A stretch of DNA of 8,325 nucleotides from assembly GCA_027031765.1 (NCBI GenBank), contig JALVPN010000220.1, forward strand, positions 1 to 8,325. The letters are read 5' to 3'. A program made the translations under genes and the position numbers. Below, in pieces: positions 2,183-7,885 of this stretch (its first letter is position 1; the number at the start of each line of letters is the position of its first letter). Under the pieces are notes generated by a model. It ran no database searches. It was not told the DNA's origin and saw nothing but the letters and a program-made list of their open reading frames with translations. Origin of the DNA: Promethearchaeota archaeon. GTDB taxonomy: Archaea > Asgardarchaeota > Thorarchaeia > Thorarchaeales > Thorarchaeaceae.

Positions 2183-4783
2183 CTAGTGTGGTCTTCGCAC
2201 TACATAGACTATGAGGGCGACTGCGGCCAGTCCTGCTGCGCCTCCAACAATGAAGACCCATAGTGGGACCTGACCATCAGTTGGTGTGGTCGTGGTGGAG
2301 CTCGTGTTTGTTGTCGTTGTCGTGCCTGTTGTCGTGGTGGTTGTTGTCGAGAGCTGCAGCGGACTATACGGGGACTGCACTGTGTTGCCCGAGCGGTCGG
2401 CTGCAGACACGAAGTAGTAGATGGTGTCCGAACTGAACTCCGTGACGTTGACAGTGGCGACATAGAGTGTCCCATTGAACGTCATTCCATGCAGCACTGC
2501 GAGTGCAGGGTCGGGTGAGCCGTCCATGACCCCCAAGAGCACGGACGACGTGTTGAGGTCGTGGTCCGAGACATCGGCGCTGACGACGACAGTGTCGTGT
2601 GCTGTATTCAGGGGTGCTGTGACCGTGCTGATGGACGGTGGTGTGGTGTCCTGGAGCACAAATGTGTAGTTCCAGTAGTCGTGGAACATCGCTGCAGGCT
2701 TGTATACGGCTGCAATCATGTAGTCGCCGGGCTTGATGCCGAGCGATCCAGTGTCGGCAACTGTGGTCAGGGTGCCGTTGGCTTGGGCTGTTACCGGCAG
2801 TTCAATCATGGGGTGGGGCAAGTTGTTGATTGCTGCACAGGCCCTGCTGGCATCCGTCAGTTGCGTCCCGTTCTCGTCCGTGACGACCAGCGAGATGGGG
2901 ATTGCGGTGCCCAGTTCGACCGTGAACGGGAGCGTGCGGTTGAGTGTGATGTGGCACTGGCTGATGACGATTGAACCGCGTGGTGGCGTTGGATAGATGC
3001 GGCCGCGTGCATACTCGCCGGGCTGAAGCGAAGACCTAGCGTGTGTCGCCTCTTGTAGTGCAAAGTCCTCGATGTAGAGGTGGCCGGTCAGCGTCCGGGA
3101 GCCGTTCACTGACTGGATACGTCCGACGACCGGGAAGATGTCACGGGACGAAAGGATTACCTGCGCACTGTACGTGTCACCGAAGTACAGCCCCTTCGGG
3201 TGGCTCTCAATGGACTTGTTGTTGATGAAGTCGTACCCGAGGACTGGGAGTCCGGTCGTCTCGTTCACGAACGTGAGCCTGACCTTCCATATCTCGACGG
3301 GCGGGTCGATGACTGGGATGCTCTCTGCAATCTCGCGGGCCCTCTTTAGCCAAGAGGGTATTGGCACCTCCAACTTCTCAAGTATCTTTATGCCCTTGAC
3401 AACGATGTCCTTTACTGTTGTTACTGAGAAGACTACCTTGAGGAAGCTCTTGAGGGCCTTCTTGGTGATTTTCTCAAGGAGGGCTTTCTTGATGCCGTCA
3501 AGCATCTTGCCTTGGATGAAGCCGATTATCTTCTTCATGAACTGCTCAGCGAAGTCCGCGCCTCTTTTGACCGCGTCCAATACGTTCTCAGCGATGTCGA
3601 GGACGATAGAGATGTCAAGGTCGAACTTCTCCTCGGCAACGTCCGTGGTCGTGTCAACGGTATTCAGAGTGGTATACTTCGCATCAATCTGGTGCTGGCA
3701 GGCAAAGTAGTTGTGCGGGTCGAAGGTGCCCTCAACCGTATAGTCGATGAGATGATAGTTCCTCACGCGGTGGTCGTGGGCGATGTAGTGTGAGAATGCA
3801 TCAAAAAAGGCCGCCTGCACCGTGGCATTGCCGTTGATGATGGTCATATTCAGCAGGTCATGTGACCCGAGGAAGGTCATGTACTCGTAGGGACTCGGGA
3901 ATGGCAGGGTGAGTTCGGTCTGGCAGATGACGTAGTAGTGCGACTCGTCAATGTCCTCATAGTCGATAATGCCCAGCTTGACGAACGGCATCAGGAACTC
4001 CTGATTGGTAGCGCTTTCAGCAGCCACTCCGACCAGTCCCATGATCCCGAACGTGTGTCCGTGCATGTCGACATCAAGCGTCATGTTGTACATCTCAATG
4101 CTGGGGTTCTGCCATATGTCGGGGATACCGTCGTTCTCGGTGTCGGCCATGACATTGGTGTGCCCGTGCACCTCTACAGCGTCGACTGCGTAGTAGTATG
4201 TCGGGTTGGACACAGAGGAGTGTCCGACAAGCAGCACGTACTCAATCGAACAGTTGGCGTACTCGAGGACGACGTCTCCCGTTTCTGTTACAACGTCCCC
4301 GAGATGGCACCAGTCGTACGGGTCAATCATCGACACATTGAACCCCTTGCTGTTGGGTGAAACATAGGGGTCATTCCATGTGTACACCTCCAGGATGGTG
4401 TCAGCGGCACCCTCATCGACTACCGCTTTGAGCACCAGCATGTCGCTCATTATTGAGCCATTGACCTTTAGCAAGGCGTACTCAGATTCAGAAGGAAACC
4501 CCATGCGCATCTGGAGGCCATCTGGAATGCCTACGATGGCCTTGGCGTCCTCCACACCAGGACTAGTCACATTGTCAGACCACGCCTCGATATAGCAGGT
4601 CACTGCCTCTTCGTTGTAGAGGTCAGGTGCAGATGAGATGGCGTTACGTTCCGGGGCGTGTGCCCCGTGGGCTTTCGGTGGCGCGGCCGCTCCGGGCAGC
4701 GTGGCCACGCCATAGTTCGAGACCAGCAAGACCATGAACAGAAGACTCACAGCCCTGGTCCTAATACCAATAGTGGTGTGCAT
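2183..4783 (-). CDS. Large secreted, C-terminally membrane-anchored cell-surface glycoprotein (866 aa) with Ig-like domains
   Basis: It has an N-terminal signal peptide (RTRAVSLLFMVLLVSNYGVATLPGAAA) and about 18 N-X-S/T sequons. A DTENDGIPD Ca-binding-like loop is present at 4112-4144. The C-terminal Ig-like module (DTTPPSI...YYFVSAADRSGN) is followed by a Thr-rich linker, a TM helix (VPLWVFIVGGAAGLAAVALIVYVV) and an RRPH tail. ATG 4783 was chosen because GAGGT lies just upstream. Confidence 0.85.
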   Translation of the reverse strand: MHTTIGIRTRAVSLLFMVLLVSNYGVATLPGAAAPPKAHGAHAPERNAISSAPDLYNEEAVTCYIEAWSDNVTSPGVEDAKAIVGIPDGLQMRMGFPSESEYALLKVNGSIMSDMLVLKAVVDEGAADTILEVYTWNDPYVSPNSKGFNVSMIDPYDWCHLGDVVTETGDVVLEYANCSIEYVLLVGHSSVSNPTYYYAVDAVEVHGHTNVMADTENDGIPDIWQNPSIEMYNMTLDVDMHGHTFGIMGLVGVAAESATNQEFLMPFVKLGIIDYEDIDESHYYVICQTELTLPFPSPYEYMTFLGSHDLLNMTIINGNATVQAAFFDAFSHYIAHDHRVRNYHLIDYTVEGTFDPHNYFACQHQIDAKYTTLNTVDTTTDVAEEKFDLDISIVLDIAENVLDAVKRGADFAEQFMKKIIGFIQGKMLDGIKKALLEKITKKALKSFLKVVFSVTTVKDIVVKGIKILEKLEVPIPSWLKRAREIAESIPVIDPPVEIWKVRLTFVNETTGLPVLGYDFINNKSIESHPKGLYFGDTYSAQVILSSRDIFPVVGRIQSVNGSRTLTGHLYIEDFALQEATHARSSLQPGEYARGRIYPTPPRGSIVISQCHITLNRTLPFTVELGTAIPISLVVTDENGTQLTDASRACAAINNLPHPMIELPVTAQANGTLTTVADTGSLGIKPGDYMIAAVYKPAAMFHDYWNYTFVLQDTTPPSISTVTAPLNTAHDTVVVSADVSDHDLNTSSVLLGVMDGSPDPALAVLHGMTFNGTLYVATVNVTEFSSDTIYYFVSAADRSGNTVQSPYSPLQLSTTTTTTTGTTTTTNTSSTTTTPTDGQVPLWVFIVGGAAGLAAVALIVYVVRRPH
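2279..2350 (-). repeat. Low-complexity Thr-rich linker (STTTTTTTGTTTTTNTSSTTTTPT) within the surface protein
   Basis: Imperfect (ACN)n codon run, seen as TGT/CGT/GGT triplets on the + strand, immediately before the TM anchor. Confidence 0.9.
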
Positions 4784-4791
4784 TGTTCTAT

Positions 4792-4796
4792 ACCTC
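4792..4796 (-). promoter_or_regulatory. Shine-Dalgarno-like GAGGT for the surface protein gene
   Basis: The minus strand reads TTGAGGTATAGAACAATG, with GAGGT 8 nt before ATG 4783. Confidence 0.55.
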
Positions 4797-5109
4797 AACA
4801 GAACGCGAAGTGCTGGTTCACGACGTTATGTCGATGGCACGGCTTTGTCGTGCATACAGTCTAGCGCTATAGAACCAGTTCGCATACATTATCATGGGTC
4901 CGCATCTATTAAATGGTCCTGTAGTCATCTCACCGACCTACGGGCCCTGCGGTCTACGCCTGGACGGCCCATTCCCGACGGCCCGCAGTCTCAGGCTGAA
5001 GGTGTACTCCTATGCAGCAAAGGGACTAGACCCCGGTGCACCTCTCGCCTCCGCGTGCCAAGGGAAGGATGATAGGGACCACATGGCCCCTGTCGTATGA
5101 GGGTTCCTG

Positions 5110-5564
5110 TTGCTGACATGGGGCTTCGGTGCATGCAACAGAGAAGAGATGGTGCGTTTCATTGCACAGTTCAGACAGACCTCTGCCGGACTGAAACAGC
5201 GAGGAACACCGCTCACTCTTGAGGCTGCAGGCGAAGAACTGGACTATTGTATGGGCCGGGGTTGTCCGATATTCGTTGCAGTGCACGAGGACCGCGTGGT
5301 CGGATATCTGGTGTGCTGGGTCGACGAGGACACGGTGTGGACGGAGTCGCTGTATGTCGTACCTGCCCTGCGCCGCAGAGGGGTGGCATCTGCCACGTAC
5401 GAGGGGGCCGAGGAGTTCGCATGGACTCTGGATGGCGGCACAGTCCATAGCCCTCCTCAAAGGCCGCGGACACGATGCCGTCAACCTAGTCGAAGTGCAC
5501 CGGTGCGTACAGGGACGAGCAACTGGGGAAGATTGCTGTCGTCAGCCACGAGTTCCGATACTGG
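5110..5564 (+). pseudogene. GNAT-family N-acetyltransferase pseudogene with two frameshifts and a probably lost stop codon
   Basis: Frame 1 carries PIFVAVHEDRVVGYLVCWVDEDTVWTESLYVVPALRRRGVAS (acetyl-CoA motif A). At about 5446 the protein-like sequence moves to frame 2 (IALLKGRGHDAVNLVEVHR; GNAT motif B, ..FL...GY..LNL.E.R). At about 5504 it moves to frame 3 (AYRDEQLGKIAVVSHEFRY), followed by TGG where a TGA would be expected. The start is uncertain (TTG 5110, or ATG 5118 with a further shift). Confidence 0.75.
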
Positions 5565-5629
5565 TCCTTGCAGGTAGTTGGCGCCCCCGTGCCGGCCAGT
5601 ATGTTGAGCAACACGACTACTACCCACGA

Positions 5630-5836
5630 CTAGTCCAGCGTGCTCTCAAGTGCGAGCGCAGTCCGAACAGCCTCGCGCACCGTATCGGCAACGTACAACA
5701 TACCGCACTCAGGTCGTACCCCATTTTCCTCTCTTGGATCTCATTCCAGACACACGTGGCTATCAACCCGGTGCACATCACTACCCAAGAGTCCCCGCAC
5801 CACATCAATGACATGGGCACTACCGCGTACGTTCAT
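5630..5836 (-). pseudogene. Possible decayed remnant of a LOG/TIGR00725-like Rossmann-fold gene
   Basis: One frame gives MNVRGSAHVIDV...HVCLE*DPREENGVRPECGMLYVADTVREAVRTALALESTLD*, with an internal TGA at 5741-5743. A shifted frame gives GAGTLG* at 5787-5801. These resemble the LOG-like motifs NVRS.DAVI.VGGG.GTL and A.T.EEAV..AL. The similarity is short and judged by eye. Confidence 0.3.
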
Positions 5837-5962
5837 GCTCTGTCGAAGTATTGCTGGCGAATAGCAGAGGACAGCCAAAGAACCTTTTTCTTGAGAGATG
5901 GAGTGACCTATTCGCCTCCGGCCACCGAGAACGTCATGGCACAAAAGGGAGACTTGAACGCT

Positions 5963-6091
5963 ATGCCGACATGCAGTGACTGCAAGTACTACAGACCAAT
6001 AAATGAGAACGAGGGCGATTGCTTGGGGGCCAAGGTACCTGCTGACAGGGATGCTGGGCTGTGTCCTGCTAGGGCGTTCACACCCAAGTGA
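5963..6091 (+). CDS. 42-aa four-cysteine miniprotein, putative [4Fe-4S]/Zn-binding, resembling BssC/HpdC-type small subunits
   Basis: The sequence MPTCSDCKYYRPINENEGDCLGAKVPADRDAGLCPARAFTPK has a C-x2-C-x12-C-x13-C motif. A purine-rich AAGGGAG at 5945-5951 precedes ATG 5963. An alternative ATG is at 5936. It is hidden at the end of the composite ORF 5219..6091. Confidence 0.75.
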   Translation: MPTCSDCKYYRPINENEGDCLGAKVPADRDAGLCPARAFTPK

Positions 6092-6382: not shown

Positions 6383-7885
6383 CTACCACACCCACATCCC
6401 GAAGAGCTGGAAGACGACGGCCTGAGCGAAGACTATGGCCAGCAACAAGCGACTCTCTCTGCGGCTCATGTCTGTCCTCATGATGTATGTGAGCACCGGG
6501 ACGAGGAGGAATGGTAGGACGAACATGCAGATCCTTGCGGTCTCCCCTTTTTTCGGCGTCCCGGCCAAGAACAAGAGTGCAAGGGAGAGGAGTGCAGCCT
6601 TGACCAAGCTGTACTCTGTTGGAAACTGCCCACCCGTGACCGCCTCCCCCCTCATCGTCACGAGCCCCCGGTATGTGAGGACGCACATTGCAGGGCCCAG
6701 GAAGACCAAGATGTCCATGACATCCTGTACGCGCGTCACGACGTATTCGACTGGACTCGCCACGAGCATGAACCCACCCGGGTTCTCAAGGGAGCTCGCG
6801 TAGAGGAATGCATCGACGTAGTTGAAACCGGTTGTCACGAACAGCAGCAGGTAGACCCCGCCGACACTGGCTGTGACGAGGAGAGGAAAGCCCATGGGAC
6901 GCAAGACGCTGGCCATCCGGGCGAGCAGGCTGTTGTTGTCGGCCCCGGCAAGTGCCCTGAGCCCCTCGAAGGTGAAGAGCAACAGCACTGCAAAGACAGA
7001 CAGGAACGTAATGAATGTCAGCAGGAATAGACAGACCGAAGAACCCAGAAATGCGACACGCCGGTCTTCGTAGAGGTAGAAGTACACGACGCCCGACACC
7101 AGTGTCGCCACTACTGCATAGACGTTCGCAAGATAGTACACCTGGACTGCTGGGAGGAGCAGGTAGAGGAGCACGGCATATGCTGCTGTTTCCTCGTCCA
7201 CGCCAAGGAGTCTCACGAGTATGCCCCTGATGAAGAACGCCGAGCCGATGGCTGCGAGCACACAGATGGCAATGGCCACTGCGCCCGGTGACCCTACCAG
7301 CCGATAGAGCACGTATACCAAGAGGACTGCTCCAGGTGGCTGGGTCTGCGCATGCACTGTGAGTGTCGGTTGCAGCTCCTCATAGTTGCTGATGAAGTCG
7401 ACTATGCTCACAACTCTGGGCAGATCAGTAAAGAGCTCCAAGGGCCCTGCAATAGGCTGCACTATGCCGGCGTCCCAGCCATGGACCAGACTGGTGGCAA
7501 TGATGGACAGGGTGCCGACCACGGCCGCCTGCCAGACACTGAGATGTGCACCTTCCCGTCTGTTGAGGTGTCCCAAGCAGACTGCTGCAATGACTGCAAT
7601 TGGCACAGCGACCATCAGCTCTCGGACACCCGGCAACACCAGCTGACCCCACAGAGGCCAGCTGTCGAACCTGCCATACGTGCATGTCCCATCCCGTGGT
7701 GGCGGACCGGGCGGTGGGGGACCACCAAGGTACCCTCTCGCAGATGCGGGGCCCAGTAAGAGGCGATATGCAACGACCACTACGATGATGCCGAGGAGCA
7801 CTGCGGTGTAGGCCCTGAGGTTCTCTCTACTGAGGAGGACTCGATGTCCTGCGCCACCAGCAGCCCGTGATGTGATGCCCGTCAT
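6383..7885 (-). CDS. Polytopic membrane protein, GT-C-fold glycosyltransferase-like (mannosyltransferase-like), 500 aa
   Basis: It has more than 10 hydrophobic segments. The loop GWDAGIVQPIAGPLELFTDLPRV...FISNYEELQPTLTVHAQTQPPG resembles the GW..G...EY...HxxxHPPG loop, and KKGETARICMFVLPF resembles the KxExxRIWLPF motif, of uncharacterised GT-C membrane proteins. Confidence 0.7.
   Translation of the reverse strand: MTGITSRAAGGAGHRVLLSRENLRAYTAVLLGIIVVVVAYRLLLGPASARGYLGGPPPPGPPPRDGTCTYGRFDSWPLWGQLVLPGVRELMVAVPIAVIAAVCLGHLNRREGAHLSVWQAAVVGTLSIIATSLVHGWDAGIVQPIAGPLELFTDLPRVVSIVDFISNYEELQPTLTVHAQTQPPGAVLLVYVLYRLVGSPGAVAIAICVLAAIGSAFFIRGILVRLLGVDEETAAYAVLLYLLLPAVQVYYLANVYAVVATLVSGVVYFYLYEDRRVAFLGSSVCLFLLTFITFLSVFAVLLLFTFEGLRALAGADNNSLLARMASVLRPMGFPLLVTASVGGVYLLLFVTTGFNYVDAFLYASSLENPGGFMLVASPVEYVVTRVQDVMDILVFLGPAMCVLTYRGLVTMRGEAVTGGQFPTEYSLVKAALLSLALLFLAGTPKKGETARICMFVLPFLLVPVLTYIMRTDMSRRESRLLLAIVFAQAVVFQLFGMWVW

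Follow-up and report, generated by a model that had tools for sequence, protein, structure and literature searches.

The window analysed here is the whole stretch of 8,325 nucleotides that makes up positions 1 to 8,325 of contig JALVPN010000220.1 (assembly GCA_027031765.1), assigned to a thorarchaeal member of the Promethearchaeota. Its minus strand carries a gene for a surface glycoprotein of 866 amino acids (aa), in the middle of which a reading of the letters alone, made without database searches (hereafter the sequence-only reading), had picked out a lysine-rich helical block and proposed a membrane-active role for it. This block is the helical half of an undescribed two-part extracellular core, which lies between a lectin-like head and a stalk of immunoglobulin-like (Ig) and Thr-rich parts. 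The translation of 3299-3616 on the minus strand is exactly the 106-aa peptide quoted in that reading. It corresponds to residues 395-500 of an open reading frame (ORF) that extends upstream to a TTG at 4798 (2183-4798, minus strand, 871 codons) and to residues 390-495 of the 866-aa product, whose numbering, starting from the ATG at 4783, is followed below. Record P0003 represents the 866-aa form (identity 100% over 866 aa). The features of the gene are as follows, with the confidence of the structure models given as pLDDT (predicted local distance difference test).

2183..4783, minus strand: whole gene, 866-aa type I membrane glycoprotein, ATG at 4783, stop codon at 2183-2185
4685..4783, minus strand: N-terminal signal peptide of about 33 aa with a basic start, a hydrophobic core and an Ala-rich end, as read from the sequence
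4169..4618, minus strand: head, residues 56-205, a jelly roll of the galactose-binding-domain-like kind (CBM32 / F-type lectin fold), pLDDT 85-91
3734..4168, minus strand: residues 206-350, an acidic D-x-N-D-G-I-P-D motif followed by an alpha/beta domain, pLDDT 70-83
3629..3733, minus strand: linker, residues 351-385, of low predicted order (pLDDT 26-41), joining the alpha/beta domain to the helical block
3299..3628, minus strand: helical block, residues 386-495, containing the lysine-rich segment, with helices H1-H5 and the DPP hinge
2969..3298, minus strand: beta-sandwich, residues 496-605, with the LLGYD and GLYFG motifs
2348..2968, minus strand: two Ig/FN3-like stalk domains (filamin / macroglobulin-like), residues 606-812, pLDDT 75-88
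2186..2347, minus strand: Thr-rich stalk, single membrane helix and four-residue basic tail, residues 813-866

The sequence-only reading had described the surroundings of the block as an acidic, beta-rich protein with an Ig/Thr stalk and an anchor, and this description holds; the chain starts with a signal peptide and has a Thr-rich stalk followed by a membrane anchor at its C-terminus. AlphaFold2 models were made of the full-length protein from a 24-sequence alignment and of residues 205-712 from a 30-sequence alignment. They predict a helix at residues 2-27 in the signal peptide region, followed by a disordered linker. The head aligns by VIA-align with IFT25, the CBM32 domain 4zxe and fucolectin (Z 12.0-12.4, root-mean-square deviation 2.6-3.1, 122-132 residues within 54-212), and Foldseek gives it a TM score of 0.61 against 4zxe, the match being one of the fold only. 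The D-x-N-D-G-I-P-D motif in residues 206-350 is of the thrombospondin type 3-like kind and possibly marks a putative calcium site. The beta-sandwich reached pLDDT 73-89 in the 205-712 model after Bathyarchaeia sequences had been added to the alignment. The Ig/FN3-like stalk domains resemble those of filamin, the complement macroglobulin (MG) domains and the Ig-like domains of S-layer proteins (Z about 10). The Thr-rich stalk is probably O-glycosylated, and the C-terminal helix is the sole transmembrane-grade segment of this protein (-1.3 kcal/mol). Insertion energies, here and below, are approximate values on a Hessa-type scale, after the 2005 biological hydrophobicity scale.

This build is that of modular prokaryotic adhesins, which likewise combine a head of the CBM32/F-lectin fold, tandem Ig/FN3-like stalk domains, a Thr-rich stalk and a membrane anchor. 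However, the central 400 residues have no counterpart in the described adhesin families, and here conservation is highest in this part and not in the head. No Pfam or NCBIfam family matched any part of the protein, and sequence searches of PDB with the family profiles or with the segment alone returned nothing significant, in keeping with the earlier suggestion that the block belongs to something undescribed. Fold searches with the full and core models (Foldseek against PDB and BFVD, and VIA-align) listed only jelly-roll and Ig/FN3/filamin/macroglobulin-like matches. Among the listed matches, none belonged to the alpha/beta domain, the block or the beta-sandwich individually; these parts were searched only inside the full and core models, which leaves the novelty of their folds unproven. 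For the block itself the output of the fold search is uninformative, because its pLDDT is 28-53. Feature searches of the ESM Atlas with residues 385-620 and with the homologue P0004 gave no usable match, and its fold search gave weak rows only (TM score at most 0.33). The protein is thus classed with adhesin-like surface glycoproteins, distinguished by a new core module, and is not assigned to any membrane-active family.

The composition of the block sets it apart from the rest of the chain. The 106-aa segment contains 16 of the 29 lysines of the protein, leaving 13 for the other 765 aa (hypergeometric P = 1.4e-8, or about 1e-5 after correction for all window positions), and since the best 80-aa window also holds 16, the count of 16 lysines in about 80 residues given by the sequence-only reading was right. 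The ratio of lysine to arginine is 16:3 within the segment and 13:21 in the rest of the protein; the segment has a net charge of +5 and the remainder one of -49. As had also been pointed out, the segment lacks N-x-S/T sequons, 18 of which occur elsewhere in the protein. In this single sequence such an absence has a P of about 0.10; across 24 homologues, none of 361 sequons falls in the block as against about 47 expected from its length, these sequences being related and not independent samples. The absence extends to all 14 superfamily representatives, whose proteins have up to 26 sequons, and in all 14 of them hydrophobic residues make up 45-53% of the block.

The block is laid out as an acidic helix H1 with an LDxxE motif, lysine-rich helices H2-H4 punctuated by glycine, an LPxW turn, H5 and an invariant DPP hinge. 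Helices are predicted at residues 391-406, 411-435, 442-452, 454-470 and 477-487 (pLDDT 28-53 in both AlphaFold2 models); they are 11-25 aa long and are broken by invariant Gly and Pro. AlphaFold2 gives these five short helices without confident packing, although it folds the flanking domains (pLDDT 70-89) from the same alignment. The hydrophobic moment is 0.49-0.64 in four of the five predicted helices, a level matched by 2-5% of shuffled sequences, and every 18-mer of the whole protein with a moment above 0.5 lies within the block. On the other hand, the longest helix, which is hydrophobic all round, has a moment of only 0.26, reached by 28% of shuffles. The amphipathicity that had been claimed from the i/i+3/i+4 periodicity therefore stands for four helices and fails for the longest one, and for the block as a whole it is real but moderate. 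Hydrophobic periodicity peaks at 85-90 degrees (i/i+4) as compared with 103 degrees for heptad coiled coils. The most hydrophobic 19-mer includes three lysines and one aspartate and scores about +9.7 kcal/mol. Together with the shortness of the helices, their interruption by invariant Gly/Pro and a conservation beyond the needs of amphipathicity (79% identity, see below), this value argues against the membrane-inserting helix that the sequence-only reading had envisaged for this protein.

Within the close family, conservation is highest in the helical block, with a mean pairwise identity of 79% (minimum 67%) and 44 of 106 columns invariant. The beta-sandwich that follows it shows 76% mean pairwise identity, the alpha/beta domain 58%, the first Ig domain 55%, and the head and the second Ig domain, the least conserved, 45% and 44%. 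Lysine is kept in at least 22 of 24 sequences at 11 columns, where no exchange between lysine and arginine occurs. The glycines at 421, 425, 430 and 464 are invariant, as are Asp396, Glu399 and Asp403 of H1. No conserved dibasic or other cleavage site was found among the homologues in the linker 351-390, and the Lys-Arg pair at 406-407 varies. These data support the view that the block is a genuine and selected element that is helical, cationic and hydrophobic.

A word-indexed search of 5.8 billion proteins returned 27 homologues of about 850 aa with 45-66% identity, all from Thorarchaeota and Hodarchaeales bins and all annotated as 'hypothetical', and a scan of species-representative genomes gave matches in metagenome-assembled genomes of Thorarchaeota and Heimdallarchaeota. 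An exhaustive HMMER pass through 1.84 billion cluster representatives yielded only 14 matches, three of which (P0030, P0036 and P0039) widen the family across the block. P0030 is a membrane-anchored singleton, from which a word-index search returned the query alone. P0036 and P0039 are Bathyarchaeia proteins, and their relatives lack a membrane helix and end with dockerin repeats or CARDB-like domains. The dockerin is a module attaching proteins to archaeal cell surfaces (PMC9012536), and such anchors are a further likeness to modular adhesins. The Bathyarchaeia relatives of the module that end in dockerin repeats include P0036 and P0041-P0043. On a Bathyarchaeia contig (L005, 6001-8070 and 8146-9657), the gene next to such a relative encodes a BNR/CARDB/dockerin protein, a hint that these archaea may build a surface assembly of the cohesin-dockerin kind.

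Profile searches of 400 Asgard genomes showed a patchy distribution, with the close family in 12 genomes (8 of 85 within the window's own family), larger paralogues with the full module in three further genomes and remoter ones in three. No homologue was found on viral contigs. Neither a comparison of four homologous loci nor tblastn of the window neighbours against 16 loci revealed a conserved neighbour or synteny; GNAT genes lie near several homologues, with no detectable orthology. A search for repeats flanking the gene gave nothing beyond short matches at chance level. The patchy and synteny-free distribution fits an accessory gene. The sequencing runs listed as containing the gene comprise one DNA run, from a hydrothermal vent metagenome that is probably the sample of origin, and no RNA run. 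Ras-family and Arf-family small GTPase genes (L003, 10104-10700; L004, 3934-4818) lie within a few kb of two homologues. Asgard genomes abound in small GTPase genes, and this proximity may be a coincidence.

What recurs across these proteins is larger than the block. The alpha/beta domain, the helical block, the DPP hinge and the beta-sandwich constitute, as judged by sequence comparison, an undescribed module for which no sequence relative was found in Pfam, NCBIfam or PDB. Its hosts are Thorarchaeial and Heimdall/Hodarchaeial proteins, the dockerin-bearing Bathyarchaeia proteins and the larger Asgard paralogues. Heads and anchors differ between the Asgard and Bathyarchaeia hosts. The alpha/beta domain with its D-x-N-D-G-I-P-D motif, also present in the Bathyarchaeia proteins and the Asgard paralogues, is the opening part of the module. 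Across 15 representatives, the LDxxE helix, the helical hydrophobic block, the D-P hinge, LLG and G-x-Y-F follow one another in this order with invariant or nearly invariant columns, and three remoter Asgard proteins also display this pattern. Seven columns are invariant (the Glu of LDxxE, one Leu in the lysine-rich helix before LPxW, the Asp and Pro of DPP, the Leu and Gly of LLGYD and the Gly of GLYFG), and a further four are conserved in 90% or more of the sequences (the Tyr and Phe of GLYFG, the Asp of LDxxE and the Pro of LPxW). The block and the beta-sandwich always co-occur, no relative being seen with only one of them, and this constant co-occurrence together with the shared invariant columns indicates that they are one evolutionary unit. 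The block is thus not an autonomous module comparable to an antimicrobial peptide or a toxin hairpin, as had been supposed, but one half of a unit of block, DPP hinge and beta-sandwich that follows the alpha/beta domain. H2 and H5 are deleted in some relatives, so that the minimal element is the acidic helix, the helical hairpin and the LPxW turn.

The heads and stalks carried by this module differ considerably. In the larger paralogue L006, strings of Big/Ig domains precede the same core. In another protein (L007, 29-3466, minus strand, G051:C67, 1145 aa), an FG-GAP beta-propeller of the integrin-alpha-like kind precedes the core, which is followed by Big_13 / Y_Y_Y Ig-like domains and a membrane anchor. 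In a third (L008, 30-1898, plus strand, G105:C54, 622 aa), the membrane anchor is immediately preceded by some 45 aa of clear acidic heptad coiled coil, a sequence feature suggesting that some family members are oligomeric. The weak similarity of this paralogue to the S-layer stalk protein SlaB is below threshold (E 6.4e-5, 22 bits versus 700).

The character of the block also varies among subfamilies. Lysine numbers 15-19 and arginine 0-3 in the blocks of the close family, P0030 and the Bathyarchaeia proteins, arginine being 0-2 in P0030 and the Bathyarchaeia proteins alone. In the Asgard paralogues, the block keeps its helices and the invariant LDxxE, but it is mostly without the lysines (7-11 Lys) and is plainly hydrophobic. 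The earlier description of the helices as cationic is therefore valid in this subfamily and does not extend to the distant Asgard paralogues. In two of these, L006 and L031, the homologous region reaches 0.0 and -1.3 kcal/mol, to be compared with -2.6 and -1.8 for their C-terminal anchors. In L031 (G043:C15, open frame of 1432 aa) and L006 (2780-6781, plus strand), sequons flank the transmembrane-grade segments on both sides; a membrane hairpin amid an otherwise extracellular protein would be unusual.

Lysine-rich helices at the surface of a cell bring to mind a toxin-like pore former or the precursor of a cationic antimicrobial peptide, in which the helices, once freed or uncovered, would make competitor membranes permeable and so serve contact-dependent killing. 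The composition is like that of cationic helical peptides and colicin-type pore domains (lysine far in excess of arginine, charge +5, moments up to 0.64), and an acidic helix stands ahead of the cationic part, as in some peptide precursors. Colicin-type pore domains, like the diphtheria toxin T domain and the Bcl-2 family, have lysine-rich amphipathic helices, with lysine far above arginine, around a more hydrophobic hairpin, and a transmembrane-grade hairpin is present at this position in L006 and L031. However, the block has about 100 aa and five short predicted helices as compared with about 200 aa and ten in the colicin type, and it lies within an anchored glycoprotein, whereas the colicin-type domain terminates a secreted toxin. 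Its hairpin is charged (+9.7 kcal/mol) instead of being an uncharged hairpin of about 40 aa, and there is no immunity gene nearby. A Pfam search with residues 380-500 at E up to 1 gave no Colicin, toxin, bacteriocin or other family, save a chance NACHT-helical match (E 0.069, 13 bits versus 27), and NCBIfam gave none. Peptide precursors differ in their conserved cleavage motifs, since no conserved processing site lies beside the helices, which run on into conserved folded domains at either end. An identity of 79% is the opposite of the rapid divergence typical for such peptides, no immunity-like or export gene is conserved in the neighbourhood, the block is inseparable from the beta-sandwich, and the lysines are gone in paralogues that retain the module. 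A toxin or peptide precursor is accordingly very improbable.

The reading that we tentatively favour, at a likelihood somewhat short of even, takes the block to be a latent element for contact with a membrane or lipid surface. The acidic helix with LDxxE and the neighbouring domains would cover a hairpin of helices with broad greasy faces, which in this subfamily would be edged by the strictly conserved lysines. The head would first bind a glycan on the surface of a partner, and the cationic hairpin would then rest on, or dip into, an anionic lipid surface, whether this belongs to a partner cell, to a vesicle or to the cell itself. The outcome would be tighter adhesion or lipid contact without a pore, interfacial binding being expected because the charge of the hairpin should keep it from crossing a bilayer. 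We infer that lipid and not protein is what the hydrophobic faces meet and that the contact is non-lytic and made in trans.

Several observations point to such contact. The block is both strongly hydrophobic and sequon-free in all of the 14 representatives, and the segments of L006 and L031 at the homologous position are as hydrophobic as their own anchors. Soluble domains with such hairpins are typically membrane-inserting, as in colicins, the diphtheria toxin T domain, Bcl-2 and viral fusion peptides. The selection of lysine over arginine in the block is strong, in a protein that otherwise has more arginine than lysine. AlphaFold2 folds the flanks and yet finds no packing for the block, as is expected if the stable state needs a partner surface. 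The combination of a variable head with a block that is the most conserved part is the pattern of surface glycoproteins that have a variable head and a constrained effector core. Finally, the protein is built for outward contact, with its CBM32/F-lectin-like head, its stalk and its anchor (a membrane helix in this protein, a dockerin in the Bathyarchaeia relatives).

A number of findings weigh against this reading. The block of this protein is not insertable as a membrane helix, with a minimum of +9.7 kcal/mol and a lysine near every turn, and transmembrane-grade hydrophobicity is seen in only two of 11 members examined, the members other than these two and the present protein lying between +4 and +9. 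The net charge of the Bathyarchaeia block is 0 to -5, and cationic docking is therefore not general. The longest helix, with hydrophobic residues all round (moment 0.26), looks like a bundle core. An identity of 79%, 44 invariant columns and the absence of any exchange of lysine for arginine amount to far more constraint than electrostatic lipid binding needs and suggest specific protein contacts. Low pLDDT may be due only to the shallow, low-diversity alignment of 24-30 sequences. No relation to any membrane-active family was detectable in Pfam, NCBIfam or the sequence searches of PDB, and the sole PDB sequence matches, which are non-significant, are designed four-helix bundles (E 0.12-0.24).

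These points lead to the main alternative, a buried or oligomeric helical bundle, which the sequence-only reading had named as the mundane explanation. Here, the five helices would pack on the beta-sandwich or the alpha/beta domain, or join two or three chains, with no membrane involved. The lysines would pair with the acidic H1 and the acidic neighbouring domains or bind an anionic protein or glycan partner, and the bundle would be the structural or partner-binding hub of the module. We regard it as a serious possibility, almost as likely as contact with membrane or lipid. The very high conservation at the level of single residues, polar positions included, is what such a bundle would show, with Gly421, Gly425, Gly430 and Gly464 as small-xxx-small packing motifs. 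The invariant Asp396, Glu399 and Asp403 of H1 face the lysine-rich helices, and the alpha/beta domain next to the block has a net charge of -18. The lack of amphipathicity in the longest helix, the equal conservation and constant company of block and beta-sandwich, and the heptad coiled coil of L008, suggestive of oligomer-capable family members, fit a bundle as well, as does the low pLDDT if it reflects the alignment depth alone. The designed bundles S-824 and S-836, the top PDB matches for the family profile, show a similar alternation of hydrophobic residues with Lys/Glu/Asp in short helices, a weak and non-significant likeness that is one of pattern only, to artificial proteins. On the other hand, AlphaFold2 usually packs small bundles readily, and the block stays at pLDDT 28-53 although its neighbours fold from the same alignment. 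A content of about 50% hydrophobic residues, together with transmembrane-grade segments in two paralogues, would be unusual for a water-exposed bundle. Across subfamilies, the charge of the neighbouring domains does not follow that of the block, and the deletions of H2 and H5 in some relatives would be ill tolerated by a fixed five-helix fold.

The constant pairing with the beta-sandwich also raises the idea of a holder for lipids or other hydrophobic cargo, in which the helices and the beta-sandwich would enclose a cavity that extracts, carries or presents lipids at the surface. The precedent for such a surface protein is P116 of Mycoplasma pneumoniae, which extracts lipids by means of a hydrophobic cavity built from helices and a sheet (PMC10023570) and needs no ATP to move them between liposomes (PMC12487902). 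A similar cavity could be formed, without homology, by the block plus beta-sandwich. Broad hydrophobic helix faces beside an ever-present beta-sheet domain, the lack of sequons, the hydrophobic content of 45-53% and low-confidence packing in a model made without ligand would all suit such a holder, which we nevertheless consider unlikely. The size differs from that of P116, about 100 aa being small beside the P116 core, the organisms are unrelated, and the searches gave no significant match to P116 or any lipid-transfer fold. The P116 family profile NF045696 did not match this protein, and its match to the relative P0030 is non-significant (E 0.07, 11.3 bits versus a cut-off of 65) and serves as a lead only. 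The need for uptake is doubtful in Asgard archaea, which synthesise their own lipids, and the model of the block is too unreliable for a cavity to be assessed from it.

The favoured reading of a latent contact element has a stronger version, in which the core is a triggerable membrane-engaging device of Asgard archaea and Bathyarchaeia. Binding of the head to a glycan would free the hairpin from the beta-sandwich, and the hairpin would insert into the partner membrane or clamp it. This version is improbable on present evidence, and an outright fusogen for cells or vesicles is somewhat more doubtful still. Such a fusogen would be a metastable type I glycoprotein, an analogue and not a homologue of the class I viral fusion glycoproteins, in which binding of the head releases the hairpin into the target membrane and refolding draws the membranes together. 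Type I topology, a variable lectin-like head and a most conserved, sequon-free and hydrophobic internal segment are shared with the class I glycoproteins, whose receptor-binding heads are variable and whose helical middle is conserved, glycan-free and hydrophobic. The poor prediction of a single state and the membrane-proximal coiled coil in L008 would also be consistent with it, and Asgard cells, which have no ordered S-layer, make intimate cell-cell contacts via numerous surface proteins (PMC9834061).

Nevertheless, the block has no long heptad repeats, its helices being at most 25 aa long, broken by Gly/Pro and of 85-90 degree periodicity. It has no conserved cleavage or priming site upstream, the Lys-Arg at 406-407 not being conserved, and its hairpin is too charged for insertion in this protein. 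No relative lies on viral contigs. As for the class II fold of fusexin / HAP2, the listed matches of both models were only jelly-roll and Ig/FN3/MG-like, with no fusexin-like fold among them, a result that does not by itself exclude unlisted families. A fusogen could not work in the dockerin-bearing Bathyarchaeia relatives, which lack a membrane anchor. A resemblance of the stretch G-F-I-Q-G...L-D-G to the fusion peptide of influenza HA2 was also looked into; no haemagglutinin chain was matched at E up to 10, and the resemblance was dropped as chance.

Elsewhere in the window, 6383-7885 (minus strand) encodes a multi-pass membrane protein of 500 aa, rich in Pro/Gly in its N-terminal region and with no Pfam match at E up to 5; its gene sits two genes from that of the glycosylated surface protein. 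A GNAT acetyltransferase ORF lies at 5110-5577 (plus strand), in which the Pfam match covers only residues 43-107 and the Pro/Arg/Ser-rich tail looks out of frame. It is overlapped in a different frame by a 290-aa ORF at 5219-6091 (plus strand), and a frameshift or an assembly error may account for this arrangement. The GC content is 0.50 at positions 1-500 and 0.55-0.65 elsewhere.

Cultured Asgard archaea have no ordered S-layer, and their numerous uncharacterised surface proteins are thought to mediate cell-cell contacts relevant to eukaryogenesis (PMC9834061). The module described here is a compact and strongly constrained extracellular unit, which surface proteins of Asgard archaea and Bathyarchaeia combine with a variety of heads and anchors. 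At its centre is a glycan-free and very hydrophobic helical block, which is lysine-coated in one branch and of transmembrane grade in another. Should the block have no role at a membrane, the module would still be a new structural domain family for the annotation of archaeal surface proteins. If contact with membrane or lipid is correct, it would provide an initial molecular entry point to the way in which these archaea make contact with partner cells. If the core were a triggerable device, it would offer a native route to intimate membrane contact, lipid exchange and even fusion with syntrophic partners, and thus a non-viral, previously unknown machinery for membrane contact or fusion in the lineage nearest to eukaryotes.

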